64,000 nucleotides of DNA from positions 1 through 64,000 of IMG/VR virus record IMGVR_UViG_3300032007_000057. One strand, 5' to 3'. The notes below the pieces were generated by a model. It was not told the DNA's origin and did not search any database. It saw nothing but the letters and a program-made list of their open reading frames with translations. Positions 9,275-38,194 of this stretch are shown here, piece after piece (position 1 is the first letter of the stretch; each line of letters starts with the position of its first letter). The DNA is from a virus (taxonomy: Duplodnaviria > Heunggongvirae > Uroviricota > Caudoviricetes). The translations under genes were made by a program, and so were the position numbers.

Positions 9275-10270
9275 CTACCAACCTATATCATTAGGATCAT
9301 CAACTTTAATCCCAAAGATATCACAAAAATTAGAAATACGATCATCAACTGCAAATTCTTGCATTTTATTATAATTAATTCTAAACTTAGTTAAATCTAA
9401 TGTACCATTAGTAGGAATAGTAATACAATCTAACTTACCTTCTTTACCCATTGTACCAGATCGAACTAAATCTGTCAAGCGTCTTTGTGTATCTGAATCA
9501 AATTGACCTATATCAATTTCTTCCAAGTCAAATCTATAGCCTCTATCCATTACTCTAAAGGTACTTCCATAAATTGCATTATATACCAACATAGATTTAA
9601 CTGATCTTGGCAGTCTATCTTGGGCATAGTTTTCTTTATTCCAAGAACTTGGAATAGCACAATAAACTGTACCTGTTTTTAACTGCTCAACATATCTACC
9701 TCTATAATCATCAATCTTAGTGGTAAGCTCTTCTTTACTGATTCCTTTCTTAAGGATATGCTCAATAAAATCATTTAACATATCTCTGCTAAATTGAGGA
9801 TAATCAGATCTTACAACTTCTATACCACTAATACTGATTTTATCCAAAGGCTTTCCTTCTTTGGAAACTAACCAAATAGCATACTTCTTTTTGATTTCCA
9901 GAAACAAAGCTCTTCTAATAACAAGTTCCTGTTTAAAATTAAAGTTAAACTTTTTAGCCGAAGATTCTGTAGGAGATGTATTATGCATATTAAGAAGTTC
10001 ATGAATCATTACATTATTAATATACTGTGCTACAGATTCATTCAATTCAATAACTTTATCTATCTTTTCCTTGTCAGAAATTTCATCATAATCTTTTCCA
10101 TAAATTGCTTTCAATGCATCGCCATATTTAGTAAAAATTGAATCTGTATTATGAACTAATATGTCATTTGCAAAAAAACAATGATCATCATCTGGCATTT
10201 CAATATCATATACATCAATAGGTTCTTCTGGAGTAATCACTTCTATTGATTTAACACTCTCTATCTTCAT
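9275..10270 (-). CDS. DNA polymerase B C-terminal fragment, preceded by a split-intein C-half (IntC, about 41 aa)
   Basis: Starts MKIESVKS...VYDIEMPDDDHCFFANDILVHN|TDSIF. That is intein blocks F/G ending in HN, then the +1 Thr, which is the TDS half of pol motif C (YGD|TDS). A KKKYA (KKRY) motif lies further downstream. Confidence 0.8.
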   Translation of the reverse strand: MKIESVKSIEVITPEEPIDVYDIEMPDDDHCFFANDILVHNTDSIFTKYGDALKAIYGKDYDEISDKEKIDKVIELNESVAQYINNVMIHELLNMHNTSPTESSAKKFNFNFKQELVIRRALFLEIKKKYAIWLVSKEGKPLDKISISGIEVVRSDYPQFSRDMLNDFIEHILKKGISKEELTTKIDDYRGRYVEQLKTGTVYCAIPSSWNKENYAQDRLPRSVKSMLVYNAIYGSTFRVMDRGYRFDLEEIDIGQFDSDTQRRLTDLVRSGTMGKEGKLDCITIPTNGTLDLTKFRINYNKMQEFAVDDRISNFCDIFGIKVDDPNDIGW

Positions 10271-10324: not shown

Positions 10325-10950
10325 ATTACACAATATTCTTATTTGTAGGTCCTGTATAGTATGGGCAATACAATACTAATCAGGTATCAATTATACGATA
10401 TTCTTATTTGTAAGTCCACATGGTAAAACAATTCCACTACTCCAAAAGCTCATAGTTATACGATACCCTTATTTATAAGTAACGTATAGTGAGTATACCA
10501 GAACTGAAAGAGCACGTCAAGTTATACGATACTCTTTATTTGTAAGTGTCGTATAGTGCTAAAATACTCATGTTTAAAATGTCTGTTATACGATACCCTT
10601 ATTTGTAAGTACCGTATAGTAACATCATTAAATTTCATTTTTACATCACTGTTATACGATACCCTTATTTGTAAGTACCGTATAGTATGTGATGGACCAT
10701 GCAGGAAGAAGATAGCGTTATACGATACCCTTATTTGTAAGTACCGTATAGTGATGATGAGGTAATAGCAGTAATAGTTAGAGTTATACGATACCCTTAT
10801 TTGTAAGTACCGTATAGTCACCCAAATCAGCATACTCTTTAATATCATGTTATACGATACCCTTATTTGTAAGTACCGTATAGTTCTTTTTTATCGTCTG
10901 TTGTATCTTCTTTTGTTATACGATACCCTTATTTGTAAGTACCGTATAGT
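10325..10950 (-). CRISPR. CRISPR array. 36-nt repeat GTTATACGATACCCTTATTTGTAAGTACCGTATAGT (plus-strand reading), 10 units, 27-30-nt spacers. Six perfect units (starts 10585, 10651, 10717, 10783, 10849, 10915). Four progressively degenerate units at the distal end (starts about 10325, 10390, 10455, 10521).
   Basis: Read directly. Units are regularly spaced at 66 nt. All nine spacers between them are unique. Repeat ends are palindromic (TATACG...CGTATA). Degeneration increases away from the cas gene, so the leader is on the cas12 side. Confidence 0.9.
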
Positions 10951-11161
10951 ATCCTATACGCAAACTCTTACAAATACTGAGTTTATTCAATATTCAGTTG
11001 TAAAAAACAGCATTTTCCATACGTAAAAACAAATAAAAAGTATCGTATCCGAATAAATCCGGAGGCAGTTAATTTTCATTAACTTTATTTAAATTCACAT
11101 CGCTGATTCTGATGATCTTATTTAAATGGGTTTGCCAAACTTACCCAAATACATCCCCTGT
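10951..11161 (-). promoter_or_regulatory. CRISPR leader / candidate tracrRNA region
   Basis: AT-rich 210-nt region between the array and the cas12 stop. Contains repeat-like segments in inverted orientation at about 11024-11050 and 10968-10977. See findings. Confidence 0.4.
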
Positions 11162-12646
11162 TTATTTAGGGAATTTAGAATACTTTAGACCTTCAATTAC
11201 GTCTTTAACTCTCATCCTAACTGGATGAAATGGATGGTATCCAACCCAACTAAAATCTGGAATTGCTTTTCTCATAATACCCATAGCGCCATTTACATCA
11301 GCATTCACCAACTTTCCAACCCCAGAAGAAAACAATCCTCTGTGAATTCTTTTACCAAAGTTAGCCTCATCTCTAGTTTCAGGGTCTTCTTTAGTAGCCA
11401 AGGGAGCATTTCTAAGATGATCTGTTTTACTAGTATAAGACTCTTCAACAATCTCGAAGCTTATGCCCCTCATTTTACACTTATATTCGAGTTTGTCAAG
11501 TAGTTTTTTAAAAGGAAAGTTAACAATAATTTGATTATTTTTATGCCCAGTATTGATCTTCTGCTTCATATCTTTATTCCAACCGCAAATAACTCTACAA
11601 ATATTATAATGGAGGCAATATCTAACAATATACTTAGTATATGCATCAACGATATAATTTATACGATTAATATGATTCTTTGTCATTGCTTCAATTCTCT
11701 TAGTAGTATACTGCTTAGGTCTTTTCTTCCCATTTTCATCAGTAATAACTTCAATCTTATGTTTAAGTTTATCTACCATTAAATGATAAAATCTAATTTT
11801 AGATTTCAAAGCATTACCATCAAGGATAACTGGATTAAGTTTATCATCACTAGTAATTATAGTACAAAAATTTCTAATACCCAAATCAATACTAAGATAT
11901 CGTTTATTATCAAGTTTAGGAACCGATTCATTATACGTATAAATTATTTCAATCTTAAAATATCCTTTTTTAGGAATTATCCTAACTTGGTCAATTCTTT
12001 TTCCTTTTACATACTCCGAATTATGTGGCAATTTTTGAAGTGGGATATAAATGCTTTTATTATATCCATCCGTTCCCCTCGGCTTAGGAAACACAAGACT
12101 TCTAGTTTTTGAGTTAATTTTAATAGAAGTACCAGAAAAGTATAATGGGCACAGATCTCCTTTTTTATAAAAACCGGGCTTTCTTGGCATTCCTTTATAT
12201 TTTTCCGGGTGCCTACTCCAATCCCCAAGGGATCTTCCATATGATTTTAAATTTTTAGATAGTAATGTTCTAATTACCTCTGTAGTTGCATCTCTACCTA
12301 CAAGATTTTTAAGTAGTTCCCAATTACTTTTACCCTCAAGATTTTTAGTATAATACTCACCGTTCTCATCTTGTTCACTGGCATATCTCCTCAAACTCAT
12401 TACTTTAAAAAAATCATCGACAGGTTTTTCAAAACCAACGTATTCGTCTGGAAACCAAGGAAAAGACTTACCAGTTTCTTTTTTATATTGTTCTCTAACC
12501 GGGTCATAAGCTTCTTTAAACTCATAAGCATAGTACAGTGTCTGATTATACAAATTCTTAGCAACAGTACATGCTTCTACAAGCCAATCATATACTTCTT
12601 CATTTCCAGGTCTTCTATAAAAGTTAAAACTAGCAGTAAGTTGCAT
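11162..12646 (-). CDS. cas12: Miniature type V CRISPR effector (Cas12f/TnpB-like RuvC nuclease), 494 aa
   Basis: TnpB-type N-terminus (..LYNQTLYYAYE). RuvC-I LSIDLGIRNF, RuvC-II IVEESYTSKTD, RuvC-III NADVNGAMGI. No CxxC...CxxC zinc finger between RuvC-II and RuvC-III. SD GAGGGGG before the ATG. Directly flanked by the CRISPR array. Confidence 0.85.
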   Translation of the reverse strand: MQLTASFNFYRRPGNEEVYDWLVEACTVAKNLYNQTLYYAYEFKEAYDPVREQYKKETGKSFPWFPDEYVGFEKPVDDFFKVMSLRRYASEQDENGEYYTKNLEGKSNWELLKNLVGRDATTEVIRTLLSKNLKSYGRSLGDWSRHPEKYKGMPRKPGFYKKGDLCPLYFSGTSIKINSKTRSLVFPKPRGTDGYNKSIYIPLQKLPHNSEYVKGKRIDQVRIIPKKGYFKIEIIYTYNESVPKLDNKRYLSIDLGIRNFCTIITSDDKLNPVILDGNALKSKIRFYHLMVDKLKHKIEVITDENGKKRPKQYTTKRIEAMTKNHINRINYIVDAYTKYIVRYCLHYNICRVICGWNKDMKQKINTGHKNNQIIVNFPFKKLLDKLEYKCKMRGISFEIVEESYTSKTDHLRNAPLATKEDPETRDEANFGKRIHRGLFSSGVGKLVNADVNGAMGIMRKAIPDFSWVGYHPFHPVRMRVKDVIEGLKYSKFPK

Positions 12647-12708: not shown

Positions 12709-13818
12709 TCAAGAGGCTTTATTAAAAACCTTATATCCATTACGAGCTGTCTTATCTTCACATAAGATAATAAATTTAGGATAGCTATTACTATTAAAAT
12801 AAGTTGCTCTCTTACAGTGCTTACACGATAAGCACTGAATCATCACTGGTGCCTTTTTCCTTATATGGTAGTCCTGAAATTGTGGGCAAAAATTAACGTT
12901 TGATGTAACAATCGACCTTGGAAATTCGTTTCTAAAAAATGTCCACTGTCTTGTTAGATCTAATCCATTAAAATTTTTATTTTCTAATATATTCTTAAAC
13001 TTCTTTTGTTCCATATATTCTATAATGTCAGTCTCTTTTAAAGCATCTAATCCCTCATCAGTTAGATTGTCATAAAACCTATCTACATACCATTTAACTC
13101 CGTTTGTAACTCGAAAAGCGTATTCATAAGATCTATCACAAACTAGGTCGCTCTCACCACTTCTATGAATCCAATTGCATGGAATACTGCCGCTTAAGTA
13201 TGCCTGTTTTAATTCGTCATATGTAGATTCTCTATTTACTTTAGATAAGTCATACTCTACAACATAAAAATTATTAGTATCTATAGATTTAATTAAATCT
13301 AGTTTTACATCATCTACTCCATGGGTTACTGTTACTTCAAGATACACGCTACATGGAGAGCTATTAAATCCAAACATTTCCTCATAACTAACATCATAGC
13401 ATGTCAAATCGGGTCTAATATATTTCCCATTAGCACAATTTAAATTTTTTTCAAGATAACCCTTATTAAATTTATAAAAATTTGATTCTTTAATCCTAAT
13501 ATATGATGTGCCCATACTAAGCGTATTAGGATTTATAATATTACCATTCCAATCAATATCTAATTCAGGCATCCTACATAGGCCTGTTTCCATAATAATC
13601 TTTTTCATGCCTAAATGTAAATTAGTCTCTCCATGAACATAAACTGAAGCTGGACATTTACTATTCGGTAAATGTGAAAAATGATGACCAACAATATTAC
13701 CTTTTTTAGCTACTAAAGGCTCCCCGCATATAGGGCAGATATAATTATGCAACCCAGACACTACTTCAGAAATATTCTTAATGCTACCGTCTATCAAACA
13801 ATATTCTAACTGAGCCAC
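12709..13818 (-). CDS. CoiA-like nuclease-family protein (N-terminal Cys/His zinc finger)
   Basis: CPICGEPLVAKKGNIVGHHFSHLPNSKC matches the CoiA-family N-terminal C..C...HHFAH..C signature. 369 aa, co-oriented and 62 nt upstream of cas12. Confidence 0.55.
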   Translation of the reverse strand: MAQLEYCLIDGSIKNISEVVSGLHNYICPICGEPLVAKKGNIVGHHFSHLPNSKCPASVYVHGETNLHLGMKKIIMETGLCRMPELDIDWNGNIINPNTLSMGTSYIRIKESNFYKFNKGYLEKNLNCANGKYIRPDLTCYDVSYEEMFGFNSSPCSVYLEVTVTHGVDDVKLDLIKSIDTNNFYVVEYDLSKVNRESTYDELKQAYLSGSIPCNWIHRSGESDLVCDRSYEYAFRVTNGVKWYVDRFYDNLTDEGLDALKETDIIEYMEQKKFKNILENKNFNGLDLTRQWTFFRNEFPRSIVTSNVNFCPQFQDYHIRKKAPVMIQCLSCKHCKRATYFNSNSYPKFIILCEDKTARNGYKVFNKAS

Positions 13819-18103: not shown

Positions 18104-20683
18104 TTATAAGGTGATTAGTTGGTCTGTTACAACTAATTCTGTTGGTTTAATTATAGTTTTAACATTATTTCTCATTACTACCAAACTATGATCTTCAGTT
18201 ACAGTGACTGTTTTTCCAGATTCAGTAGTAATCTTATACAGTTTCTTATTAGTTTTATGCTTCATCAGATACCTTGGGAAATAAAGTCTGTCATCATATC
18301 CAAGTACGCATTTATTAGGATTCTGAATATAATTTTTTCCGAGATAATGCCACACTTTATTATCCGAAGCACACATATCCCAAAGTTCTTTAATAGTTAT
18401 ATTACCTTTACCAGTTCTGATTAAAGAATCTCCAGTAACTGAATCTCCATAAATTACATTTGGTAGAGCTTGTTCTGATTGGTAATCCCAATCAAAAGGA
18501 ATATCTACATGGTCAAATTTATTAGATTTATTTTGAATCATTTGATTAATGCAATTATTAGCAACTACTGCGGCGATTTTAGCAATTTCTCTACCAGTAG
18601 AAGTAATACTTCTGGCAACCTCATAATCATACAATCTGAATCTAATATTGGACTGACCACCATAAAGAGAATTAGTAATGATCTTAACTGTTTTCTGCAT
18701 AGTATCATATCTGTCAACTAGCATTTGGTCTTTACCAATATTATCCTTCATAAGATCTTTATACTCTTTTCTCTTTTTAATGAGCATATCTACAATATCA
18801 TAAAGAACTGACTGCTTATCTTCATGCTTCTTAAAGATAGTGCCAATCTGGGTAATAATATACCCATTCTTAAGCATTCTTTCATGAAAACTTTTAGCAG
18901 ACAATTTATACAATCTCTCAATACCTTGAACTTTCAAATACAAACTTACATCTGTATTGGAATTAACAAATTCTTCTTTATTAAAGATATATTGTCTAGC
19001 AGTATCTGTATCAACTTTTCCTACATAGGTATCTGCACTAATGTTATATCTTGCCATAATGTATGGATAAAGAGAAGTAAGATCCAAATCACCCAACCAA
19101 TCATGTACACCGCTAATTGGTTCTCTAACATAAGCACCCGCAAACTTTTTCTTCTCAATTCCAGCTTTAACAATTTTGGCTACTTTATCTCTATCCATAA
19201 GATACTCATAAAGAATCCCATCACAAATATGTAGAGTAGTATAAATACTATCCCATGAGATATTAGCCAACTGGACTATACTAAAATTAAGGTCAATATA
19301 CTTCAACTTTTCATCCAATTTTCTTACAAGATGAACGTCGTTAATATTGTATGCAATAAACCTTTCAGGTTCTTCCCTAAAGATTTTATCCATGCCATCT
19401 TCAGTATCAAGTTTAGTAATACCCAACTCAATTTTAGAAATAGTTCCAAGCTTATAATTCTCTTTTTTACCAAGAGTTCTTTCCTTATAGCATCTTTGAT
19501 AATCAAGTGCTACAGAATAACCAATATGAGGAATACAATAAGTAACTTCCTCTTCATGTTTATTCATAACTGTTTTATATTCAATTTCAAAAGTTTTATT
19601 ATGAGCCAGTTTAGGATGTTCAATTCCTAAAAATTCTGCTCTATACTTAATATAAGGTAAATCAAATTCATCACTATTCCACCCAGATACTAGATCTGGA
19701 TCAAATTCTTTCAATAAACTGAAGAACTTAAGGAACATATCACTTTCTTTATCAAAGATTTCTACATTGAAAATACACTCATCTTTGTAATCAAGATATT
19801 CCTTAATTTGTTCAGTATTAATTTTAGCTTTGTTTAAATTATAGACCAAAGTATAATATTTGTCAGTATAATTATCATACAAAGTAATCAAGTTAACGGG
19901 AATAACTCTAGCTGACTTCTTAATATCAGCAAAGTCAATAATACCATATCCTTCTTGATACAACTCAATATCAACATAATTTACTCTAAGTTTATAATGA
20001 CCAAGATTATCTTTGTTTTCTTTTTTCCAAAGATAATTCTTATGAATAGCCAAATTAAAATCTACATTATAAATAGCTTTATAAGAAGATTCTGACTGAA
20101 TTTGTTCAATAATGTATTTTCTTTTACCATAATGTACCAGTTCACCTTTTAATCCTGCAATATCATGAACATCTAAATAATCATCTTTACCGGTATACAT
20201 CATAACCATATCATCAGTCTGAGTAATATATCTTTTATCACCAACTCTAATAACATATGCAAATTCCTTATTCACATAGTCTGAATAGAAGTTAAACAGC
20301 ATAGGCTTAGAATACCCATCAGTTGGCTTAGAATCTTCTTTCTCTTTAGAGCTATACAATTTATATTTACTCTTTTTATTAATAACTACATCAGTTTCTT
20401 TCTTTTTAGGTTTTTCTTCAATTTTGGGAAACACGGGTTTAACAGGAATATAATTAAACTTATAAATAGTGTTATACTTCTTATGTACTTTAGCAATATC
20501 TTCAATAGAATACTTATACGCATAAGGATTATTGAAAAGCTGATTCAATACAATAGATGTTTCAAAATCTTCTTCAGCTAAACTTAAAATAGAGGAAATC
20601 TTAAGAGACTTACATTCCTCTGGAAATGGCACATTTCCTTCAGTAGCTAACCATCTTATATATGTAGTTAGTGGTGAAGCCAT
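18104..20683 (-). CDS. DNA polymerase B N-terminal fragment (exonuclease plus pol motifs A and B) fused to a split-intein N-half (IntN, about 112 aa)
   Basis: Exo I VDIEL, motif A DLTSLYPYIM, motif B KIITNSLYGGQSN, then motif C cut at ...VIYGD|SVTGDSLIRTGKGNITIKELWD (intein block A with Ser1). Intein block B VTEDHSLVV follows. The ORF ends at the intein-half boundary. Confidence 0.85.
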   Translation of the reverse strand: MASPLTTYIRWLATEGNVPFPEECKSLKISSILSLAEEDFETSIVLNQLFNNPYAYKYSIEDIAKVHKKYNTIYKFNYIPVKPVFPKIEEKPKKKETDVVINKKSKYKLYSSKEKEDSKPTDGYSKPMLFNFYSDYVNKEFAYVIRVGDKRYITQTDDMVMMYTGKDDYLDVHDIAGLKGELVHYGKRKYIIEQIQSESSYKAIYNVDFNLAIHKNYLWKKENKDNLGHYKLRVNYVDIELYQEGYGIIDFADIKKSARVIPVNLITLYDNYTDKYYTLVYNLNKAKINTEQIKEYLDYKDECIFNVEIFDKESDMFLKFFSLLKEFDPDLVSGWNSDEFDLPYIKYRAEFLGIEHPKLAHNKTFEIEYKTVMNKHEEEVTYCIPHIGYSVALDYQRCYKERTLGKKENYKLGTISKIELGITKLDTEDGMDKIFREEPERFIAYNINDVHLVRKLDEKLKYIDLNFSIVQLANISWDSIYTTLHICDGILYEYLMDRDKVAKIVKAGIEKKKFAGAYVREPISGVHDWLGDLDLTSLYPYIMARYNISADTYVGKVDTDTARQYIFNKEEFVNSNTDVSLYLKVQGIERLYKLSAKSFHERMLKNGYIITQIGTIFKKHEDKQSVLYDIVDMLIKKRKEYKDLMKDNIGKDQMLVDRYDTMQKTVKIITNSLYGGQSNIRFRLYDYEVARSITSTGREIAKIAAVVANNCINQMIQNKSNKFDHVDIPFDWDYQSEQALPNVIYGDSVTGDSLIRTGKGNITIKELWDMCASDNKVWHYLGKNYIQNPNKCVLGYDDRLYFPRYLMKHKTNKKLYKITTESGKTVTVTEDHSLVVMRNNVKTIIKPTELVVTDQLITL

Positions 20684-28567: not shown

Positions 28568-28645
28568 TGGTCGGGTATGGAGGATTTGAACCTCCGACCC
28601 TCTGCTCCCAAAGCAGATACGCTAACCAGACTGCGCTAATACCCG
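28568..28645 (-). tRNA. tRNA-Pro (anticodon UGG), CCA encoded
   Basis: Minus-strand cloverleaf CGGGTAT...TCTGC-TTTGGGA-GCAGA...GGTTCAAATCC...ATACCCG-A-CCA. Confidence 0.75.
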
Positions 28646-28650
28646 TTTAG

Positions 28651-29187
28651 TTACTCTTTAAAATACAAATCCCCAGTTTTATCTCCATCAATCTTATGCA
28701 GAAATACCCAATCTAAAAACTCACAAGCAGTAGATCTTTCTTCTTCAGAACAATCACTACCATTAATATACTCATCAAACCATTTATAAAACAGTTTCTT
28801 TCTATTGAAAGTTGCATTAATACAACTACTAAGCATATCCAAGTCAATATCTTTAAGATCTGTTTTACCGGCGTTTTTCATTACAGCTTCAATAGTTTCC
28901 CTGATAGCCTTAACATTTTCTGGCTGATAATAACGTTCGGCATTATTAGTCACATTTTCACATTTATTTATAGTCATATTCATATTTGTTATCCCACTTT
29001 CTTTATATTGGTAATAATGATTGGGATACTTAAAGACCAAAACTCTAGCTTTATAGGGAGAGGTTTGATCTCTATCCCAATAAACTAGTTCCATTTCTAA
29101 AAGCTTTCTAGCTTCAAATGGAGTAATCTTGACACTATCTTTTTTAAACTCTGAATCAAATAACTTAATTGTTTTCTCCATACTCAT
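28651..29187 (-). CDS. Hypothetical protein (178 aa)
   Basis: ORF. Confidence 0.45.
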   Translation of the reverse strand: MSMEKTIKLFDSEFKKDSVKITPFEARKLLEMELVYWDRDQTSPYKARVLVFKYPNHYYQYKESGITNMNMTINKCENVTNNAERYYQPENVKAIRETIEAVMKNAGKTDLKDIDLDMLSSCINATFNRKKLFYKWFDEYINGSDCSEEERSTACEFLDWVFLHKIDGDKTGDLYFKE

Positions 29188-29261
29188 TATGGGTAGTCTC
29201 CTTTATATAAGGGTGATTGTCTCTGCTTTTTTAATCAAGAAAAAACAGGTCAAAAAGAAAA

Positions 29262-29295
29262 GGTTTGAGGGGAATTTCACCCCTCTGAGAGGTAT
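29262..29295 (-). terminator. Rho-independent terminator
   Basis: GAGGGGaatttcaCCCCTC stem. On the minus strand it is followed by TTTTCTTTTT. Confidence 0.5.
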
Positions 29296-29488
29296 TAAAT
29301 TTTAAACTAAAAAGCCATAGGAATATACGCAGCTTTATAAGTCTGTTGCTTAGTTGATCAGTATCTAAGCTATCTGGAAGATGCGAAGACCTATGGTTAA
29401 TTCTTTAAAAGGCTATAGGAATATCAGTACTCAAATGATCAGTTTAAGTAGTCTATCTGATAGACCTATAGTCAATGCTTATCTATTA

Positions 29489-30097
29489 TTAGGGCCACTC
29501 ACCAAGAGGCTGTCCAAGAAGACCCTGCTGAGGAACCCCTTCAAGAATCTCCTTGAATTCAATCTTATCGTAATTGGAATACACACTGATAAGAACAACC
29601 CTGTTAGGATTACCCTTAGTCATAGCCTCAGGAGAAAGCACCATCTCTGTTTCACCAGCAAAGACGTACTTCACACCATTGACAACCTGTGTACCAATAA
29701 GTGCAAAAACTGAAACATTACTACCAACAAATCCAGCAAGATTATCCTCAAGAACCTTCATGGCCTCTTCAGGAATATCAGTAGTAGGATTAATCTGAAC
29801 CCCACCCATCTTACCAGAGTCAGACAGGACATTGGTAATCTCCACAATACTGAACTTATCATCCTTCTCATTAAGAACAATAAGAACCACATTATGAACA
29901 TCATTTCCAGTAATCATGGTCTGTGTAGCAAGAATAGCATGATTAACTCCAGAAACAACCTTACTACCAAGGTATGCAATCACATTATACTCAGCACCAA
30001 CCATATTACCAAAAATCTCTGTAAATGCGGAAGCAACCTTCTGAGGAAGCTTACCGGGAACAACATGAATCTCATAACTACCCAACATAAATATCAT
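29489..30097 (-). CDS. Hypothetical protein with internal tandem domain duplication (202 aa), moderately GC-rich
   Basis: Two repeats of ..KVVSGVNHAIL...G..VHNVVLIVL / ..QVVNGVKYVFAG.......NPNRVVLISV. Confidence 0.5.
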   Translation of the reverse strand: MIFMLGSYEIHVVPGKLPQKVASAFTEIFGNMVGAEYNVIAYLGSKVVSGVNHAILATQTMITGNDVHNVVLIVLNEKDDKFSIVEITNVLSDSGKMGGVQINPTTDIPEEAMKVLEDNLAGFVGSNVSVFALIGTQVVNGVKYVFAGETEMVLSPEAMTKGNPNRVVLISVYSNYDKIEFKEILEGVPQQGLLGQPLGEWP

Positions 30098-30422
30098 ATC
30101 CTTTCTTATTTATTTTTATCAAAAATAAAAGCTTTTATCAACATTACAATTATAAAAATTATAACTACGTATTGTATATATGGCAATAACTTTATTGAAC
30201 TATCAAATACTCCTGATAACCAGGAAAAGAATACATCAAACATACAATGTATGCACTACCAAGTTATGTTTAGTAGTATCTACTTTCTGTGGATAAGGAT
30301 CTTCATTATTCTTAAATCTCTGATACTGAAGATCTTTATACTCCTTCTTCTTCACCATTGTTCTAGTACCTGTACTGTCTTCTGTAAAATACCATTCAGT
30401 CATGTTATACATCAATCCTTTC

Positions 30423-30593
30423 TTAAGGCATATCAACTTCGTCTACATAAAGAACAATTTCCTCATTACCATAGCTATCACCAGTTGCTGAAATACTTGA
30501 TTCATCATAAAGTTGCTGAACTGAATCAAAATAGCTCTCAGAAACCTCAACTCTATGCCCTTCATCAGTTTTAAGATAGTATTTAGCAGACAT
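30423..30593 (-). CDS. Hypothetical small acidic protein (56 aa)
   Basis: ATG at 30593 with an upstream SD-like AAAGGGTG. Not in the supplied ORF track because it is under 60 aa. Confidence 0.3.
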   Translation of the reverse strand: MSAKYYLKTDEGHRVEVSESYFDSVQQLYDESSISATGDSYGNEEIVLYVDEVDMP

Positions 30594-30617
30594 ATTAACT
30601 ACACCCTTTCTTTTCTT

Positions 30618-31454
30618 TTATGTTACTGTAAATGTTTTTGAAATATCGTATTGTTCGTTCTGCCACCACGCATCCATTCCTACTCGAAAGTCTATACGGA
30701 CTGTATGTTCACCAACATCACTTACAGAGGCAGGGTCTGGAGCTGTCCAACTTCCAGAAGCAGTTAAACTATTATAAGTCTGAGAATATACCCGATTTTC
30801 ATCATAGTATAAAGTTATAGAATTAAGTTGATATCTAGTTTGTTGAACTGTATACGGAACAAAATCCCATTCAACATATGCACTTTCACCAACCGATATA
30901 TTATTAACCCTTAACACCATACCCTTGTATCTGCCTTCACCTTCTCTATACGAAATATCAACGGTCCTTACGTTATCATTGTTGTCTTCTCTAACATAGG
31001 TGTTAAACAAATCTATTATACGATTATAACAGCTATCTGCCGGTCTACTTGATAAATAAATACTATAAAATGAATCTTCACCATAATCATAATAGGTTAA
31101 AGTTTCTCCGTCATAATTAAATGTTTGATCGATATATGGAAAATAAATAGAAAAAGAGCCTAAATGGGCTATGTCAGGATCAGAGCAATATGCTCTTAGT
31201 TCAAACCATCCCATATCGGGAGGAGTATTATAATAAGGATCGTCTCCATTGCCATATGTACCGTAAGCTGACGCAGCTGGTTTACCAATTAAACGATCAT
31301 TTATAACTAAAACAATTTTAAATTTTTCAGATTTATTTTTAATAACAAACCCAACACTAATAGTCGAATCATAAGTTTGTGCTTCCGCAAAGGTCATTCT
31401 GTATATCTTATACTCATCTTTCCCCCCATTCAACAAAAGAGGTTTTGTAAACAT
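30618..31454 (-). CDS. Hypothetical protein (278 aa), possibly structural
   Basis: ORF. Tyr/Asn/Asp-rich beta-like composition. Confidence 0.45.
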   Translation of the reverse strand: MFTKPLLLNGGKDEYKIYRMTFAEAQTYDSTISVGFVIKNKSEKFKIVLVINDRLIGKPAASAYGTYGNGDDPYYNTPPDMGWFELRAYCSDPDIAHLGSFSIYFPYIDQTFNYDGETLTYYDYGEDSFYSIYLSSRPADSCYNRIIDLFNTYVREDNNDNVRTVDISYREGEGRYKGMVLRVNNISVGESAYVEWDFVPYTVQQTRYQLNSITLYYDENRVYSQTYNSLTASGSWTAPDPASVSDVGEHTVRIDFRVGMDAWWQNEQYDISKTFTVT

Positions 31455-31523
31455 TGATAAACACTCCTTTTATAAGTTTTATATTTGTAAGAACTAGGTA
31501 AACTAGTTTAAAAGTCAAAGGTA

Positions 31524-31599
31524 TGGTGGACTCGCTGGGGTATGATCCCAGAACCTGGCGATTATAAGTCGCCTACTCTACCAATTGAGCTACAAGTCC
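31524..31599 (-). tRNA. tRNA with anticodon read as UAU (Ile2-like). Anticodon assignment tentative.
   Basis: Minus strand: GGACTTG acceptor, GGCGA-CTTATAA-TCGCC anticodon arm, GGTTCTGGGATC T-arm, CGAGTCC-A-CCA. Confidence 0.65.
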
Positions 31600-31608
31600 A
31601 TGTAATAA

Positions 31609-31695
31609 TGGTGCCCAGGGGGGGACTCGAACCCCCACGCCAGAGATGGCAAGGGATTTTAAGTCCCTTGTGTCTACCTATTCCACCACCTGGGC
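31609..31695 (-). tRNA. tRNA-Leu (anticodon UAA), type II with long variable arm
   Basis: Minus strand: GCCCAGG acceptor, AGGGA-CTTAAAA-TCCCT, long extra arm, GGGGGTTCGAGTCCCCC, CCTGGGC-A-CCA. Confidence 0.75.
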
Positions 31696-31717
31696 ATTTA
31701 ACTATTTTTATATTTTA

Positions 31718-31794
31718 TGGAGCCCCTAGGAAAAGAGTTGAACTTCCATCACTTCTTTACAAGAGAAGTATAATAGCCGTTATACTATAGGGGC
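31718..31794 (-). tRNA. tRNA-Thr (anticodon UGU)
   Basis: Minus strand: GCCCCTA acceptor, CTTCT-CTTGTAA-AGAAG, GGAAGTTCAACTCTTTTCC, TAGGGGC-T-CCA. Confidence 0.7.
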
Positions 31795-31963
31795 AAATAA
31801 ATCTTATTTGTAGTCTACATCACTCAAAAGATTTAGGAAAGTTCTATACTATATTTTACTTCTGATTAACAGAGAGTGCTCCATCCTTAGCTATAGTATA
31901 GATAGATGGTTAAAAGGTGTAGATCTTTCAATAACTACTTACTGAAGACCTTTATCCAGGAAA

Positions 31964-31992
31964 ATTATATCAGCAGTATAGTTATTTGTCAA
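31964..31992 (-). promoter_or_regulatory. Perfect consensus sigma70 promoter (TTGACA-17-TATAAT) driving the tRNA cluster
   Basis: Minus strand: TTGACAaataactatactgctgaTATAAT, about 170 nt upstream of tRNA-Thr. Confidence 0.6.
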
Positions 31993-32544
31993 GTACAAAA
32001 CTGACTCACTTATTTATATGATCTACATGACCCTAAGAATAGGTCATTTGTGTAGTACTTTCGATGACTTTAATGGGCGTAATATATGTACTACAATCCT
32101 TTTCCCCTTTCAATCAAAGGATGACAGTTTCTTACCACTTGCAGTAACCTGACAACTCTCCGGAATCCTCCACTCAACACTGCTCTAGCTTCTACTAAAG
32201 GTGGCTCAACATTAAGTTTCATAGGATAACTACTACCTCAAGTGTAGTAGGTTCTAACAGTTTTTATAAAGTCTATCCCTTAGCCAAGGTAATTTTTATT
32301 GAGGGTTACATTCCCTAATAGACTTCTATCCTACTTATGCCAAATGAAGACATTACAATCTTCTAAGTAGATCAGCCTTTATTTACTGTTATTTCCCAAG
32401 CACTGATTTGGGTGAAAGGATTTTAATTGTAACTCATTTTAGGTTACAATTTAATTTTTAATGGCTCCTCCTGGTGGTTACGCTCCACCGTATACGGTTT
32501 AACAGACCGCCACTCTACTATTGAGTTAAGGAGGAATTAGAACT

Positions 32545-32639
32545 GGCTCTGGAGCCCCGATTCGAACGAGGATGAGAAAGGAGGTCCCTTTACTTACTGA
32601 TCCAAAGTCAGCTGTTTTTCCAATTAAACTACTCCAGAG
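32545..32639 (-). ncRNA. Atypical tRNA-like element. 8-bp acceptor stem, long variable arm, anticodon loop CTTTGGA (UUG).
   Basis: Minus strand: CTCTGGAG...GTTT-AATTGGAA-AAAC...GCTGA-CTTTGGA-TCAGT...AAAGG-GACCT-CCTTT...CCTCGTTCGAATCGGGG...CTCCAGAG-CC. Canonical T-loop GTTCGAATC. Non-standard combination of features. Confidence 0.3.
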
Positions 32640-32782
32640 TTAAATTATCAAGGGTTCACTTAAGACTCGCACTTAAGATCTTCAGCTTTCACATTTTCCT
32701 AATTATGCTCTAGAAGCATACATAGAAAACACTACTCAGTGAGATTTTGCTATTTAAACTATGAACCATGTCCAACAAAGAT

Positions 32783-32811
32783 ATTAAAGCATACTGACAA
32801 GAATTTGTCAA
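32783..32811 (-). promoter_or_regulatory. Sigma70-like promoter (TTGACA-17-TTTAAT) inside the ORF-free region, pointing at the tRNA-like element
   Basis: Minus-strand TTGACA, 17 nt, TTTAAT. Confidence 0.45.
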
Positions 32812-33503
32812 GAGGTGATTTTAAAAATTTTATGGCAGGTCCACTACCGCTTGCAGATAGTTCTGAAGTTTTGGAGACTCCTGTTTTACTACATAAACTA
32901 TGGACCCATCAATATTTGTTCAAAAAATTTTAGGTGTGGAGAGAAGTAATGAGGTACTCCTCCCCACTTCAAAGGAGAACGATCATGAGCGGAAAAATAT
33001 ATAGATACTTGATAGCTGTGAGGTATGTTCAGACTCAGACTCTGTTTAAATAGTACAGACCTTTATTCACAGATTTACATAATAATTACCAGCTACTTAC
33101 TATTAGCGAACGAGTTTACGTTATATTAAAGCTAATGTGATTTCACTAAGTAAATCTTAAGTGAGGTTCGACCAAGCCTCTTCATAGGGTCTAACTACTA
33201 AATCAACAATACTAACTACTCCCTACTCAGTAAAGTCTTACTCAATCCAAGATAAAATAGTCATCAATCAAAGACTATTATTTGAAATTAGATGTAAGGC
33301 TTTCTAGTCTCAGGAAAATTGAGAGAAAAGCATTGTTATTATATCGTCACATTTCAGGTGTGAAAATATAATTAGATAACTTTGCGGTCATCTAAATATT
33401 AGGAGAGTATCTTTCTTATTTTTACATGAATAAGATACTCAGAAAATCATGAAACAGAGTATTTAGAACTTTCACCAAGTATCAAATCTTTAAGTACTAA
33501 AAC

Positions 33504-34172
33504 TTAGTACTCAATTTCAATAGTGGTAGTTGCGTTAGAAACCTGAAGTGCTGAATCAACATTGAGTTCAAACTGATCAATCTCAATACTAAGAGCGTTA
33601 ATCTTCTTATTAATATCAATAGGATCAATAAGAACTGGCTGATTCTCCATATTGTACTTTTTCTTAAAGGCCATGATAGCATCTGTATTGATATTGGTTT
33701 TATCCTTATTACCATACAGGGTCTCAATGGTTTTTTCAAGTCTCTGTTCAGCTTTTTTAGTATCCTCTTCAAGCTGACTCTGTGCAAACTGAAGCTGAGT
33801 CTGAAGAGTATTAAGAAGCATTTTCTTAGTCTTAAGCCCATACTTCATCTGATAAATTGCTTCAGCAACAGTCATTTCCTTACCACCAACATTAATGATG
33901 GTTTCAGCATTAGACTTACTGATAGCAGCTTTAATAGCATCAACTCTTCTAATCAGATCAGTAACTGCCTGATAATTACTGCTTACCTTAGAACTAAAAT
34001 CCTGAATTGACATTCCATCAATTCTAAAATTATCATTAGTAGGATTATTATTTACAGCCACATACCTATTGCTAAAACTAGTGTACTGCATAATTTTCTT
34101 ATCTGCAAGTTTGACCTCACAAAGCGCCTTATGAATAGTCATCTTCTCAGTAGTCATTGCTTCAACCTCCAA
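33504..34172 (-). CDS. Hypothetical coiled-coil protein (222 aa)
   Basis: ORF. The 33497..33841 ORF is an alternative frame. Confidence 0.5.
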   Translation of the reverse strand: MEVEAMTTEKMTIHKALCEVKLADKKIMQYTSFSNRYVAVNNNPTNDNFRIDGMSIQDFSSKVSSNYQAVTDLIRRVDAIKAAISKSNAETIINVGGKEMTVAEAIYQMKYGLKTKKMLLNTLQTQLQFAQSQLEEDTKKAEQRLEKTIETLYGNKDKTNINTDAIMAFKKKYNMENQPVLIDPIDINKKINALSIEIDQFELNVDSALQVSNATTTIEIEY

Positions 34173-34182
34173 ATAATAGTTT

Positions 34183-34320
34183 TTACTTAACTCTCTTAAA
34201 ATAAACTACAACACCAGCAATAATAACAAGCAAAGCTACAAGAACTGCACTGGAAGTAATAGGATTAGCAGCTACAGTATTCTTAGCAGCGGTAAGCCAA
34301 GTAAACGCATAATTCAACAT
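34183..34320 (-). CDS. Small hydrophobic protein (45 aa)
   Basis: ATG at 34320 preceded by SD GAGGAGG. One clear TM helix (AVLVALLVIIAGVVVYF). Confidence 0.4.
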   Translation of the reverse strand: MLNYAFTWLTAAKNTVAANPITSSAVLVALLVIIAGVVVYFKRVK

Positions 34321-34392
34321 GTTTAAATTCCTCCTCATAATAAATACTAAGTCTATAAACTCTTACTAATACTACTTTAGTAAGTTTAGGAC

Positions 34393-34478
34393 AGAGGGCA
34401 GGAGACTCGAACTCCCAATACCTTTTCAGGTATGCCTGTTTTCAAGACAGGTTCCTTAACCAATTTGGATAACCCTCT
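34393..34478 (-). tRNA. tRNA-Ser (anticodon UGA), type II
   Basis: Minus strand: AGAGGGT acceptor, CCTGT-CTTGAAA-ACAGG, long variable arm, GGAGTTCGAGTCTCC, GCCCTCT-G. Confidence 0.65.
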
Positions 34479-34574
34479 ATATTAGGGGGAGTAGAATGTA
34501 ACCAAGACCTCCCCATTTTAGGAGATTACATTTTTAAATATTATACTTCTCCCACCAGTCACATTCTAATAATG

Positions 34575-35751: not shown

Positions 35752-37156
35752 CTAACTTACTCCTAAGAGCTAAATATTTTTCATTATCTAATAAGGCATT
35801 ATTTTTGATACCTTTTACTTTAAGCTTATCTAATTCAGTTTGATTATTAAATCTAATAGGCATATTCTCTAATGTGAAACCTAACTTAGCAAATCTAGTA
35901 TACAGCTCTTTACATTCATCACATTCACCACAAAGAGTATAATTGCCAAACGTATCTCTATGAAAGTGCTCACATTTAGATTTAAACTTCATAAAGGGTA
36001 TATTCAAATATAACCCTAATAGCAATATCTCTTCAGATTGAAGATTCTTAAATACTGGGGTATAGGTAGAACCTTTATTAAATCTGGTTAAATGAGTATA
36101 TAAATCAATCTCATCTAAATCGTTAGTATAGTCAATATAGTTTACTTTAAACTGATGAAAAAGAGGGTTTAATAAGTGCTCTTTTAATAATGGTGCATTT
36201 ACAATATTAAAAGTATCTATATTGAATGATTCCGTTAATAATGTAAATTCATCTTCACCTATACAATTATAGTCATTGATATTAATCTTGATCGGATGAT
36301 AAAGTTCATTAACTAAATATGGTAAAATAAAAGATTCTATACTGCCATCATAATTACAAGTTAAAACATACTTATTATTAATACTAATTGGATCATCAAT
36401 ATAGATTTGTTTAAAAGCAAATCTACCATCGATCTTAATAGTATAAACTGTCCTGTTTTCAATATTAGAAGAGCTATTTAATTGATACTCTGTAGATGGT
36501 ATATTATCGGAACTAATGAATATAGATTGGTCATCTATATGAACATAACTAGTTCTATTACTGTTAAATAGATAAATGTTATTGGCAGGTGCTTCATATA
36601 AAACTATTGAAAAGTTACCAGTAGTATTCTTCAGTACTTCTTCTAAGCCCATTAAAATATTATTTCTATGAGCTTGAATGTACATATCCAATTGATCTAA
36701 TAAAGTTTTTATATCAACTTCTTTAAATTGATCAGAATTTCTATGAGCCTGAATGTACATATCTAATTGATCTAAAGACTTTATATCAACTTCTTCAAAT
36801 CGATCAGAGGCAATTTTTTGTTTAGGAATGCCACTTACTAATAGATATAAAATATTATCTTTATTAACTAAATTGGATTCGTTAGTATTATTAGCTCCAA
36901 TTAAAACGGTATTCCTAAAGAAACTGTTATTCGATGATCTGTTAATAAGATTATACATATCACCTTTAATCTTGATAATATCATTACCTAATTTGTTTAA
37001 GCTATTAACAACCAGATTAACGTTATTACCAGTATTAACTATTGAACTAAATAAAGTTTTAAAAGTAGATTTATTAGAACTAAGATCTGTATTGAATAAA
37101 TGTACTAATAAAAAACTGGATCTTTTAGTATCCATCACTGTAATCCTCCATAACAT
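35723..37156 (-). CDS. Hypothetical protein (477 aa) with an in-frame tandem repeat and a C-terminal CGECDECK Cys cluster
   Basis: Repeat DIK(S/T)L(L)DQLDMYIQAHRN appears twice, from a roughly 60-nt DNA tandem duplication at about 36660-36800. Confidence 0.5.
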   Translation of the reverse strand: MLWRITVMDTKRSSFLLVHLFNTDLSSNKSTFKTLFSSIVNTGNNVNLVVNSLNKLGNDIIKIKGDMYNLINRSSNNSFFRNTVLIGANNTNESNLVNKDNILYLLVSGIPKQKIASDRFEEVDIKSLDQLDMYIQAHRNSDQFKEVDIKTLLDQLDMYIQAHRNNILMGLEEVLKNTTGNFSIVLYEAPANNIYLFNSNRTSYVHIDDQSIFISSDNIPSTEYQLNSSSNIENRTVYTIKIDGRFAFKQIYIDDPISINNKYVLTCNYDGSIESFILPYLVNELYHPIKININDYNCIGEDEFTLLTESFNIDTFNIVNAPLLKEHLLNPLFHQFKVNYIDYTNDLDEIDLYTHLTRFNKGSTYTPVFKNLQSEEILLLGLYLNIPFMKFKSKCEHFHRDTFGNYTLCGECDECKELYTRFAKLGFTLENMPIRFNNQTELDKLKVKGIKNNALLDNEKYLALRSKLVEVFPYDNR

Positions 37157-37379
37157 CTAAATTACAGTTTTCATGTAATTCATAAATCTTATCTAAAAGA
37201 TTACTTAACTTATTTATATCTGGATTATATGGGTCATATACACTGTATAAATCAATTAATGACTGTAAATTTGATTTTATCCTACAGTATAAAGTATCAG
37301 GGTCCTTTATATTAAGCTGACTTAAATCTGTATCAAATAAGTTTATATTATTATAAGCAGGAAGGCTTTCAATATTCAT
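37125..37379 (-). CDS. Hypothetical protein (84 aa)
   Basis: ORF. Confidence 0.4.
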   Translation of the reverse strand: MNIESLPAYNNINLFDTDLSQLNIKDPDTLYCRIKSNLQSLIDLYSVYDPYNPDINKLSNLLDKIYELHENCNLDVMEDYSDGY

Positions 37380-37736: not shown

Positions 37737-37770
37737 ACTCCTTATTTTTAAAATCTTAGTTTCTGGTTAT

Positions 37771-38151: not shown

Positions 38152-38194
38152 TATTATTATATATTTTTTTATAGTAGTAGGGAAATGGTAAAAC

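Follow-up and report, generated by a model that had tools for sequence, protein, structure and literature searches.

A phage-encoded, TnpB-derived CRISPR effector whose TNB domain lacks the zinc finger, a trait apparently inherited from IS607-type TnpBs

The window (the whole 64,000-nt stretch of Caudoviricetes DNA that was analysed) contains a compact locus on its minus strand, in which a gene for a protein of the TnpB/Cas12 superfamily is followed by a candidate tracrRNA and by a CRISPR array (Table 1). The protein, hereafter the effector, exceeds the cut-off of the NCBIfam model guided_TnpB (NF040570; 112.9 bits versus a cut-off of 100, 2e-32) as well as that of Pfam PF07282 (38.5 bits versus 26.3, E=1.3e-9); it also matches Pfam OrfB_IS605 and is labelled 'transposase' by PHROGs. 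Named Cas12 HMMs from NCBIfam and PADLOC all remain below threshold: the effector obtains 37.4 bits with Cas12f2 from NCBIfam, for which the cut-off is 450, and 35-45 bits with the PADLOC Cas12f/Cas12u3 models. The proposal of an earlier, sequence-only reading of this DNA, that the protein belongs to a lineage distinct from typical Cas12f, is borne out by these scores. In its AF2 model (pLDDT 84, pTM 0.78), for which the best Foldseek matches are AsCas12f, CnCas12f, ISFba1 TnpB and ISDra2 TnpB (probability 1.0, ~14% identity), the WED-REC-RuvC(TNB) fold is recognizable. Judged by its features, with named subtypes and clades compared by description only, the effector is a TnpB-derived type V, or TranC-like, CRISPR effector.

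Table 1. Features of the effector locus, in window coordinates.
Feature	Position	Strand	Description
Effector gene	11162..12646	-	494 aa TnpB/Cas12-superfamily protein; predicted RNA-guided nuclease
Candidate tracrRNA	11002..11161	-	Four-stem scaffold 11038..11160, anti-repeat 11017..11050, T-run 11002..11007
CRISPR array	10325..10949	-	Ten 35-36-nt repeats, nine spacers of ~31 nt
RuvC-I Asp254 (IDLG)	11885..11887	-	100% conserved in the 121-sequence alignment
Gly355, end of β4, predicted canonical RuvC-II Glu position	11582..11584	-	G 100% conserved
Lid-like loop, residues 362-374, after β4	11525..11563	-	Low-confidence, conserved; putative lid role
Glu401-Glu402, after β5; alternative RuvC-II Glu is E402	11441..11446	-	E402 100%, E401 98% conserved
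TNB domain, residues 403-448	11303..11440	-	Zn ribbon homologue without Cys; PF07282 positions 1-60/60
Thr408	11423..11425	-	Cys in 81% of relatives; 6 residues after E402
DPETRDE insertion in TNB, residues 421-427	11366..11386	-	Specific to the CRISPR-linked clade
RuvC-III Asp450 (NADVNGA)	11297..11299	-	100% conserved

All three acidic residues expected of a RuvC active site (D254, E402 and D450) are present in the effector, with the Glu in a non-canonical position. In the AF2 model, β4 spans residues 351-355 and β5 residues 396-400. Gly355 is equated with the canonical Glu position because of this secondary-structure topology and because no acidic column is conserved between residues 345 and 400 in the 121-sequence alignment that served for all conservation statistics; the equivalence is a model-based one, and the gap falls at different places in the two HMMER alignments. 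A replacement of Glu by Gly has been described in RIIr-5 (PMC10691335), and an alternative Glu 'approximately 45 residues' downstream is known from TnpB2/Fanzor (PMC10530073). Of the two sequence marks of the TnpB2/RIIr type, the effector shows the first, a canonical Glu changed to Gly or Pro, at G355, and the second, an alternative Glu about 45 residues downstream, at E402, which stands 47 residues after G355. RuvC-II is, by sequence comparison, rearranged in the manner of TnpB2/RIIr. The claim that all three RuvC motifs are intact therefore stands for D254 and D450, which are canonical, but not for RuvC-II, which is relocated to E402. The lid, which had been merged with the TNB, is better sought upstream of E402, in a loop (residues 362-374) that is modelled with pLDDT below 50 and in which, or next to which, K361, G367, N370, N371 and Q372 are nearly invariant.

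The state of the active site bears on whether the effector cuts at all. The function of the zinc finger in TnpB is unclear (PMC10691335), some TnpB-derived proteins have become repressors (review PMC13565253), and the spacers yielded no credible target, so that one could picture a DNA-binding, non-cleaving regulator, comparable to Cas12m, Cas12c or TldR, in which the finger was lost as the need for substrate loading relaxed. We consider this improbable: D254, E402 and D450 are 100% conserved, also in the transposon relatives, where cleavage is needed for homing; TnpB2-type enzymes with a rearranged site, namely TvTnpB and Fanzors, do cleave DNA (PMC10530073); and the array holds many diverse spacers instead of one or two promoter-matching guides. 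If the analogy with TnpB2 and Fanzor holds, the effector may be devoid of collateral cleavage, a property demonstrated experimentally, for ssDNA, in TvTnpB and Fanzors only (PMC10530073).

The translation of the open reading frame contains ...FEIVEESYTSKTD-HLRNAPLATKEDPETRDEANFGKRIHRGLFSSGVGKLVNAD-VNGA, and the 41-aa segment quoted in the sequence-only reading corresponds to residues 410-450 (H410-D450), that is, to positions 11297..11419 of the window. The range given for it, 11162..11400, leaves out the first 19 nt of the segment and takes in the unrelated C-terminal tail. The absence of cysteines between RuvC-II and RuvC-III was correctly noticed: there are none in the segment and none in residues 403-450, the seven cysteines of the effector being located at positions 26, 166, 261, 344, 350, 354 and 390. 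At the overall Cys frequency of the protein (~1.4%) a Cys-free 41-mer is expected about half the time and is unremarkable by chance alone; it is homology to the Zn ribbon that gives the absence its meaning. The TNB of the effector aligns to that of AsCas12f across the CSEC...CRAC motif, and the AsCas12f entries (7wju, 8dzj) bear the depositors' molecule name 'OrfB_Zn_ribbon domain-containing protein'. The C4 zinc finger, present in most but not all superfamily members, is missing from the effector. What is invariant according to the column statistics is a core of the form GKRxxRGLFxS..G...N. Three β-strands (432-435, 438-440 and 446-448) are predicted in the domain, which is modelled with lower confidence than the rest (residues 403-440 have pLDDT 59-77).

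Two positions within the TNB set the effector apart. Position 408, the only one between E402 and D450 that is commonly Cys among relatives, is occupied by Thr in the effector and probably marks what was once the first zinc ligand; according to a review (PMC13565253), the zinc finger of Fanzor and RIIr TnpBs lies 6 residues after the relocated Glu. The DPETRDE insertion falls in a gap in ~93% of the alignment sequences and is near-invariant within the CRISPR-linked clade, and the AF2 model predicts a helix there (residues 422-428).

A metal might be held by other ligands, either D409/H410/H435 in the TNB or C344/C350/C354/C390 in the RuvC core, and we give this little credence. Conservation does reach 94% at D409, and H410 never varies within the CRISPR-linked clade, but 60% of relatives carry Ala in place of H410, 79% of relatives and the homologous cluster P0005 carry Lys in place of H435, and the TNB offers no conserved four-ligand set. 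Among the core cysteines, C390 is 94% conserved and C350 and C354 are essentially confined to the effector clade, but 69% of relatives have Leu at position 344, and C350 and C354, four residues apart in or at β-strand 351-355, would by strand geometry be separated by ~13 Å, too far for a single metal ion. A zinc site relocated to these four cysteines was rejected, given the i, i+4 spacing along a strand and the lack of Cys conservation in relatives. A zinc-independent TNB is the best reading of the alignment, since no C4 site is possible and no alternative ligand set is conserved, and in this respect the sequence-only reading, which had proposed a zinc-independent domain, is supported by the prevalence of Ala and Lys at positions 410 and 435 in most relatives.

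The missing finger had been presented as something special to this gene, which does not hold. Among the 120 closest homologues, none of the 117 parsable sequences has a CxxC in the stretch from the RuvC-II Glu to the RuvC-III Asp; the same segment is devoid of it in ~145 representatives of 50%-identity clusters (117 + 28) and in all 32 segments from IMG/VR phage contigs, so that every parsed homologue, close or moderately distant, is without the motif. That the lineage normally lacks it, an outcome that the sequence-only reading had itself named as contrary to its claim, is what the alignment reveals, and large TnpB branches have already been reported to have lost the C4 zinc finger (PMC10691335). 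The nearest relatives, with 36-42% identity over nearly their full length, are IS607-type TnpBs of ~410-430 aa encoded next to serine recombinases: P0121 (42% identity), P0006 and P0033 are located directly downstream of Resolvase/HTH_17 genes, and a Resolvase neighbour was found at 7 of the 39 IMG/VR phage loci of TnpB relatives. From these sequence relationships, the effector clade appears as a CRISPR-linked offshoot of the IS607-type TnpB clade.

Downstream of the effector, a tracrRNA and adjacent CRISPR repeats are found in all nine clade loci. Arrays occupy the same place in L001, L002, L047-L050 and L052, and L003 breaks off at the first repeat; in the window, the six repeats next to the tracrRNA are perfect and the four at the far end are degenerate. 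The predicted tracrRNA scaffold shows compensatory changes in 14 of its 30 pairs across five loci, strand-specific G-U pairs included. Complementarity between anti-repeat and repeat, predicted from sequence in four variants, is strong: the duplex in the window reaches -28.2 kcal/mol versus -8.9 ± 2.6 for shuffled repeats, and cognate duplexes in the four variants, in which anti-repeat and repeat covary, range from -25 to -30 kcal/mol, while shuffled repeats give -9 to -12; the best partner is the cognate one each time. A covariance model of the tracrRNA matches all nine clade loci and nothing else searched; in ~0.7 Mb of related TnpB loci this model, a weak one built from five sequences, retrieved the clade's own only, and with filters off it found no match in the nearest relative. 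Rfam, RAGATH-18 included, yielded no match either, and these results lend no support to homology of the tracrRNA to omegaRNAs. The single omegaRNA of RAGATH-18 type expected at the 3' end of an IS607 TnpB gene is thus replaced here by a tracrRNA and an array. Conversely, 34 of the 39 loci of phage TnpB relatives contain no repeat array within 8 kb, and a crude k-mer scan retrieved weak 3-4-copy matches for the other 5, the nearest ~1.1 kb downstream of the TnpB match.

These loci would also have to be accounted for if the effector were a mobile IS607/IS605 TnpB served by an omegaRNA, with the neighbouring repeats incidental. Its best database matches and HMMs are TnpBs, and the PHROGs label points the same way, but such a reading is very unlikely: neither a serine recombinase nor a Y1 TnpA adjoins the effector in any of the nine loci; in related phages the gene keeps a fixed place, flanked by the thyX region on one side and the C-terminal half of the DNA polymerase on the other, instead of occupying variable insertion sites; at every locus the array repeat covaries with the upstream anti-repeat; and spacer content turns over between strains, even loci whose effectors share 99% identity having no spacer in common. 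No adaptation genes are adjacent to the effector at these loci. None of the 24 spacers has a credible match in GenBank phages, where hits stayed at chance level (E=0.3). Exact searches of IMG/VR with three spacer seeds retrieved nothing, and within the loci examined the spacers matched neither their own locus nor another one.

The same Cys-less segment recurs in five further protein clusters (P0001-P0005), which stem from independent assemblies. Residues 376-425 are 92% invariant among clade members whose overall identity is 56%, which makes the Cys-less domain the most conserved part of the effector. A frameshift from sequencing or assembly that conceals a Cys motif, which the sequence-only reading had named as contrary to its claim, or a pseudogene with an eroded zinc finger can be practically dismissed, as the open reading frame is uninterrupted, the other two frames of the segment are full of stops and contain no CxxC, identical or near-identical Cys-less segments come from independent assemblies and several samples, the TNB region is so highly conserved, and the Pfam TNB model is covered end to end. 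An RNA-level constraint behind the extreme conservation of codons 351-475 was also considered; the rise in third-position identity is modest, and this explanation is not favoured because AT-rich codon bias confounds third-position identity and selection at the protein level is simpler. Since the ancestral IS607-type clade would already have been without the C4 zinc finger, the effector would have inherited its absence, which the sequence comparisons present as a trait of a large transposon-nuclease clade and as neither error nor decay.

Inherited loss of the zinc finger, a relocated Glu, descent from an IS607 TnpB and a CRISPR-guided DNA nuclease together form what we hold to be the probable joint explanation of the locus. 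The ancestor of the effector would have belonged to a large clade of TnpBs of the IS607 type (associated with serine recombinases), and this clade would have moved the RuvC-II Glu from the end of β4 (now Gly355) to a position after β5 (Glu402), and would have lost the C4 zinc finger while keeping a vestigial first Cys that became Thr408 in the effector. The former zinc ribbon may persist as a short metal-free β-ribbon around GKRxxRGLFxSxxGxxxN, and the TNB presumably still helps to bring substrate DNA into place for the RuvC site. Within a rumen-phage replication module, a rare sub-lineage would then have lost the transposase and gained ~70 residues, mostly in REC/WED and including the 7-residue insert in the TNB. 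Its guide would be supplied by the CRISPR array and a separate tracrRNA encoded between gene and array, the anti-repeat of the tracrRNA pairing with each repeat and the ~31-nt spacers programming the complex. We infer both the nuclease activity and its targets, which are most likely the DNA of competing phages or plasmids.

Compared with known systems, the closest sequences are those of IS607 TnpB2 (Jiang et al. 2023, PMC10530073) and the RIIr branches (Altae-Tran et al. 2023, PMC10691335), which share with the effector a Gly at the canonical Glu site, an alternative Glu 45-47 residues further on, the NADxN form of RuvC-III and a Cys-less GKRxxRGLFxS. Unlike IS607 TnpBs, the effector has no serine recombinase neighbour, is longer by ~70 residues inserted in REC/WED, in a helix of RuvC and in the TNB, is paired with a tracrRNA and a CRISPR array where they have a single omegaRNA, and has Thr in place of the vestigial Cys408. 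As far as TranC is described in citing papers, the effector resembles it in being a TnpB-like protein in the ~300-600 aa range with a CRISPR array, a tracrRNA and no adjacent adaptation genes; these papers relate independent TranC origins from IS605 or IS607 TnpBs (Jin et al., Cell 2025) and a phage-borne example, CauTranC9, and their accounts of TranC mention neither loss of the zinc finger nor a rearranged RuvC-II. The predicted V-U subtypes of PMC10691335 are similar as well.

Cas12f proteins (AsCas12f, 8dzj/8j12; Un1Cas12f1, 7c7l) are the best structural matches (E=2e-15, TM 0.55-0.63) and are, like the effector as predicted from its sequence, miniature, tracrRNA-dependent and equipped with a TNB inserted in RuvC. 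They differ in their low identity (~14%), their canonical RuvC-II Glu and their CxxC...CxxC zinc finger, and assignment of the effector to Cas12f (V-F) was rejected in view of its HMM scores below threshold, absent finger, rearranged Glu and TnpB nearest relatives. Cas12j (CasΦ), which the sequence-only reading had cited as a lineage without the finger, is phage-encoded, has no adaptation genes, and is a single RuvC nuclease of ~700-800 aa that needs no tracrRNA; it was discarded as the family of the effector, being absent from the top 50 Foldseek matches of the model. Cas12p ('Cas12 hacker', bioRxiv 10.1101/2025.01.20.633832; PDB 9jfs) is also phage-encoded, early TnpB-like, tracrRNA-dependent and without an adjacent adaptation module. 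Unlike the effector, it has 500-700 aa, a zinc-finger domain, a thioredoxin-binding insertion and the catalytic residues D378/E478/D582; its zinc finger and its standing as a distant fold match only (Foldseek E=2.4e-10, TM ~0.4) led to its rejection as the family.

The C4 zinc finger appears dispensable across a large and evidently active branch of RNA-guided nucleases, in which the Cys-less form is under strong purifying selection, and its loss from the TNB amounts to a natural experiment on the requirements of this domain. With regard to CRISPR evolution, the locus would represent a rare phage-resident TnpB for which a tracrRNA and an array took the place of transposase and omegaRNA, in a CRISPR-linked lineage that would have started from an IS607-type, RuvC-II-rearranged ancestor. 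A 494-aa effector predicted to do without structural zinc, and perhaps without collateral cleavage, could be worth considering as a compact editor.

Tentatively, and with the odds rather against it, the effector clade might be an uncatalogued, independent domestication of TnpB into Cas12 inside phages, the first CRISPR-associated effector to unite a relocated RuvC-II Glu with a wholly metal-free TNB. If so, it would provide a zinc-independent, possibly collateral-free RNA-guided nuclease with a tracrRNA architecture of its own, and would indicate that the switch from omegaRNA to CRISPR array requires neither the zinc finger nor a canonical RuvC-II site. The clade seems to be a rare one: protein patterns retrieved no further members from IMG/VR, and the conserved tracrRNA motif none from IMG/VR or JGI metagenomes. 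In GTDB genomes, one further rumen MAG contig was found to carry a member of the clade.

The C-terminal part of the 494-aa effector reads ...GISFEIVEESYTSKTDHLRNAPLATKEDPETRDEANFGKRIHRGLFSSGVGKLVNADVNGAMGIMRK... and a sequence-only reading had described it as a Cas12/TnpB-like protein without a zinc finger between RuvC-II and RuvC-III. Residues 410-450 are indeed free of cysteine, the range then given (11162..11400) being slightly offset from where the quoted segment maps (Table); the seven cysteines of the protein occupy positions 26, 166, 261, 344, 350, 354 and 390. Taken alone, a 41-mer free of Cys is not improbable, and the observation draws its weight from homology to a zinc ribbon: the region covers the Pfam model of the target nucleic-acid-binding domain (TNB; PF07282) in full (profile match, positions 1-60/60, E=1.3e-9) and in the family profile alignment stands opposite '...YTSQR-CSEC-GNIDSGNRIGQAIFKCRaCGYEANADYNAA' of AsCas12f, both CxxC knuckles of which align with Cys-less effector positions. 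A frameshift or assembly artefact hiding the motif is ruled out, since the alternative reading frames are full of stops and contain no CxxC, and the same Cys-less segment recurs in five other protein clusters, which come from independent assemblies.

Table. Coordinates of the features discussed (in the window unless another locus is named)
Feature	Position	Strand	Remark
Effector ORF	11162..12646	-	494 aa
Cys-less segment	11297..11419	-	residues 410-450, translation
C-terminal RuvC/TNB module	11222..11596	-	codons 351-475
Predicted sigma-70-type promoter	11472..11499	-	inside effector ORF
Non-coding region		-	160 nt, between effector gene and array
Anti-repeat	11017..11050	-	end of non-coding region, with T-run
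CRISPR array	10325..10949	-	ten repeats, downstream of effector, same strand
Family-B DNA polymerase, C-terminal half	9275..10270	-	begins with 41-aa C-intein
Family-B DNA polymerase, N-terminal half	18104..20683	-	ends in N-intein
CoiA_N-like zinc-ribbon protein	12709..13818	-	upstream gene, window and L050
HNH_3 endonuclease and two small ORFs	L047 6306..7723; L003 4504..5915		upstream genes, L047-L049 and L003
Unrelated 247-aa ORF	L001 3396..4139		upstream gene, L001
tRNA, anticodon CTA	32652..32745	-	ARAGORN label Pyl
tRNA cluster	28568..34479
Orientation and GC-skew switch	~36000..40000
Cas4-like PD-(D/E)XK nuclease	42540..43295	+	phrog_1706

Judged from homologous sequences, this absence is an inherited trait of a large clade, and one already described. 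CxxC motifs between the Glu of RuvC-II and the Asp of RuvC-III were counted in parsable segments only; there were none in the best 120 homologues from a 5.8-billion-protein collection (117 parsed), none in the best 149 new representatives (P0121-P0269; 117 parsed, and another 28 once the motif was relaxed) that emerged when 1.84 billion representatives of 50%-identity clusters were searched exhaustively, where 303 reached E<=1e-30, and none in the relatives (28-37% identity) encoded at 39 IMG/VR phage loci (32 segments parsed). Parsed homologues have no CxxC, and zinc-finger loss in large TnpB branches has been published by Altae-Tran et al. (PMC10691335); the lineage therefore normally lacks the finger, the outcome that the sequence-only reading had itself named as its refutation. 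Of the top homologues, 84 carry a single Cys there, that of 'TSKCD', and position 408 is the sole commonly-Cys TNB column of a 121-sequence alignment (81%, the remaining columns each having at most 8%). This position, Thr in the sub-clade of the window, lies six residues after E402, and a review places the zinc-finger motif of Fanzor and RIIr-type TnpBs six residues beyond their relocated catalytic Glu (PMC13565253); we read position 408 as a putative relic of the first zinc ligand.

The RuvC motifs had been called intact, which holds for the invariant D254 (IDLG) and D450 (NADVNGA) and fails for RuvC-II, whose Glu is not at the canonical place. No conserved acidic residue was found in residues 345-400 of the 121-sequence alignment. 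In the structural model, beta4 (351-355) ends in Gly355, which is invariant, as are N357 and K361 after it, and beta5 (396-400) is directly followed by Glu401 (98%) and Glu402 (100%). Among TnpBs with rearranged RuvC-II, TnpB2 has Gly or Pro in place of the canonical Glu and an alternative Glu 'approximately 45 residues away' (PMC10530073), and in RIIr branches 'glutamate ... replaced with glycine' accompanies an alternative Glu in beta5, as in RuvX (PMC10691335). The corresponding distance in the effector is 47 residues, and its RuvC-II is the published TnpB2/RIIr arrangement, with Gly355 equated to the canonical position by topology and conservation rather than superposition, because the gap falls at different places in the two HMMER alignments to canonical proteins. 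Displacement of the Glu to the edge of the TNB explains why the RuvC-II-to-RuvC-III segment is so short (48 aa). A single lid/TNB region, as first proposed, is likewise not recovered: a conserved flexible loop at 362-374 (pLDDT below 50; conserved K361, G367, N370, N371 and Q372) lies apart from the TNB and is the better lid candidate.

Conservation indicates that the Cys-less TNB is functional and without decay. Among clade members with an overall identity of only 56%, the invariant share is 80-92% in residues 351-475 (92% in 376-425) and 6-65% in the N-terminal half. The wider-clade motif G431-K/R-R433-x-x-R436-G437-L-F439-x-S441-x-x-G444-x-x-x-N448 is essentially invariant and is modelled by AlphaFold as three short strands, the picture to be expected if a zinc ribbon had kept its hairpins minus the metal. 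No conserved substitute set of metal ligands was found in the TNB, H410 and H435 being Ala and Lys in most relatives. Nucleotide identity between the window and the clade locus L002 is 81-90% over codons 351-475 and 37-70% elsewhere, most simply read as strong selection on the protein; the RuvC/TNB module may alternatively have been exchanged between phages by recombination. A near-consensus promoter (TTGACA-16-TAAAAT, 11/12) is predicted ~310 nt ahead of the stop, immediately 5' of the extremely conserved stretch that codes for RuvC-II and the TNB; by analogy with TnpB omegaRNAs, which begin within the ORF, it could drive a 3' transcript. Promoter-like sites show no overall enrichment in the region.

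The five close clusters of the effector (52-99% identity, 460-495 aa) are followed by TnpBs of ~410-430 aa at only 34-42% identity. The nearest of these, P0121 (42%), P0006 and P0033, lie immediately 3' of a gene for an HTH_17-bearing serine recombinase, the IS607 organisation, and a serine recombinase directly precedes the TnpB relative in 7 of the 39 IMG/VR phage loci; none adjoins the effector in any clade locus. The proposed separation from typical Cas12f is supported by the scores of named Cas12 models, all far under threshold: Cas12f2 gives 37 bits against a threshold of 450, and the PADLOC Cas12u3/Cas12f models give 35-45 bits. The AlphaFold model (pLDDT 84, pTM 0.78) is closest to AsCas12f, CnCas12f, ISFba1 TnpB and ISDra2 TnpB (each ~14% identity), Cas12p being a distant structural match and Cas12j absent from the top 50; no solved structure from the clade was found. 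Compared with TnpBs, the effector carries insertions in REC, WED, one RuvC helix and the TNB, the last consisting of seven residues (DPETRDE, predicted helix). Tested for membership, it does not qualify as Cas12f, Cas12p or Cas12j, nor as a mobile IS607 TnpB.

The array comprises six perfect 35-nt repeats nearest the gene and degenerate repeats at the far end, with spacers of ~31 nt. Gene, non-coding region and array follow the same layout in all nine clade loci (the window, L001, L002, L003, L047-L050 and L052), the sequences of L001 and L003 ending within their first repeats. In a crude k-mer scan, 34 of the phage TnpB loci (39 in all) showed no repeat array and five gave weak 3-4-copy matches. 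The non-coding region has a four-stem fold, in which double changes maintain 14 of 30 pairs across five loci and several G-U pairs fit the minus strand only. Each of four repeat variants has a matching anti-repeat; cognate duplexes reach -24.7 to -30.2 kcal/mol versus -9 to -12 for shuffled repeats, and each row of the cross-table has the cognate pair as its best. As read from this pairing, the protein is a CRISPR effector with a candidate tracrRNA. Effectors of the window and L047-L049 are 99% identical and their repeats alike, and since their spacers are entirely different, comparison of these sequences points to array turnover between strains. No protospacers were found for 24 spacers among GenBank phages or, by exact match, for three in IMG/VR, nor were cas1 or cas2 among the ORFs examined near the locus. 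The sole adaptation-type gene seen, 30 kb from the array, encodes the Cas4-like nuclease (Pfam Cas_Cas4, 25.1 bits, cut-off 22.7; PADLOC Cas4, E=2e-10).

A tracrRNA:crRNA would guide a RuvC nuclease with the triad D254/E402/D450 and a metal-free TNB, carried by a rumen phage presumably for cutting competing mobile elements; by analogy with TvTnpB and Fanzors (PMC10530073), it may be devoid of collateral cleavage. In its working the protein resembles the miniature type V effectors that depend on a tracrRNA, Cas12f and TranC (transposon-CRISPR intermediates), while its descent is from a RuvC-II-rearranged, zinc-finger-less IS607-type TnpB clade. RuvC-II rearrangement (PMC10530073, PMC10691335) and CRISPR transitions from IS607 TnpBs (TranC), including phage-borne examples, are already published. 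Each component trait is known, the likeness of the clade to TranC clades and V-U subtypes being drawn from their descriptions. The clade is rare: P0005 is its sole other full-length representative among the 1.84 billion 50%-identity clusters, and no members came from protein-pattern searches of IMG/VR or from tracrRNA-motif searches of IMG/VR and JGI metagenomes.

The window, of rumen-sample origin, is a phage replication region low in GC (~31%). Its CRISPR locus lies between two halves of a family-B DNA polymerase divided by a split intein, a position also used in related phages; the halves are two genes ~8 kb apart, and the locus is directly upstream of the C-half, as in L002. Residues 760-857 hold the N-intein match to positions 8-93 of Pfam Intein_splicing, and the C-intein junction, ...ILVHN|TDS, interrupts pol motif C; the intein looks naturally split and trans-splicing. 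The gene immediately 5' of the effector varies among closely related phages (Table), and this region looks like a hotspot for homing-type elements. The ThyX of L003 holds a LAGLIDADG intein. L052 (CACXFL010000100.1, RUG11211) is a contig of 3 kb assigned to a rumen MAG, on which an effector of 84% identity is accompanied by the tracrRNA and an array of seven repeats; it is probably a phage contaminant of a bacterial MAG. This origin and the sample names (L047 from STEW19-1) assign the phage family to the rumen. The CTA-anticodon tRNA, which reads UAG, adjoins an unusually long tRNA-Gln(TTG) in the tRNA cluster; it may act as an amber suppressor, a hint that stop codons are recoded in part of the phage genome. 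Further along, gene orientation and GC skew both reverse, from minus-strand and negative to plus-strand and positive, which fits either a replication origin or a point of divergent transcription.
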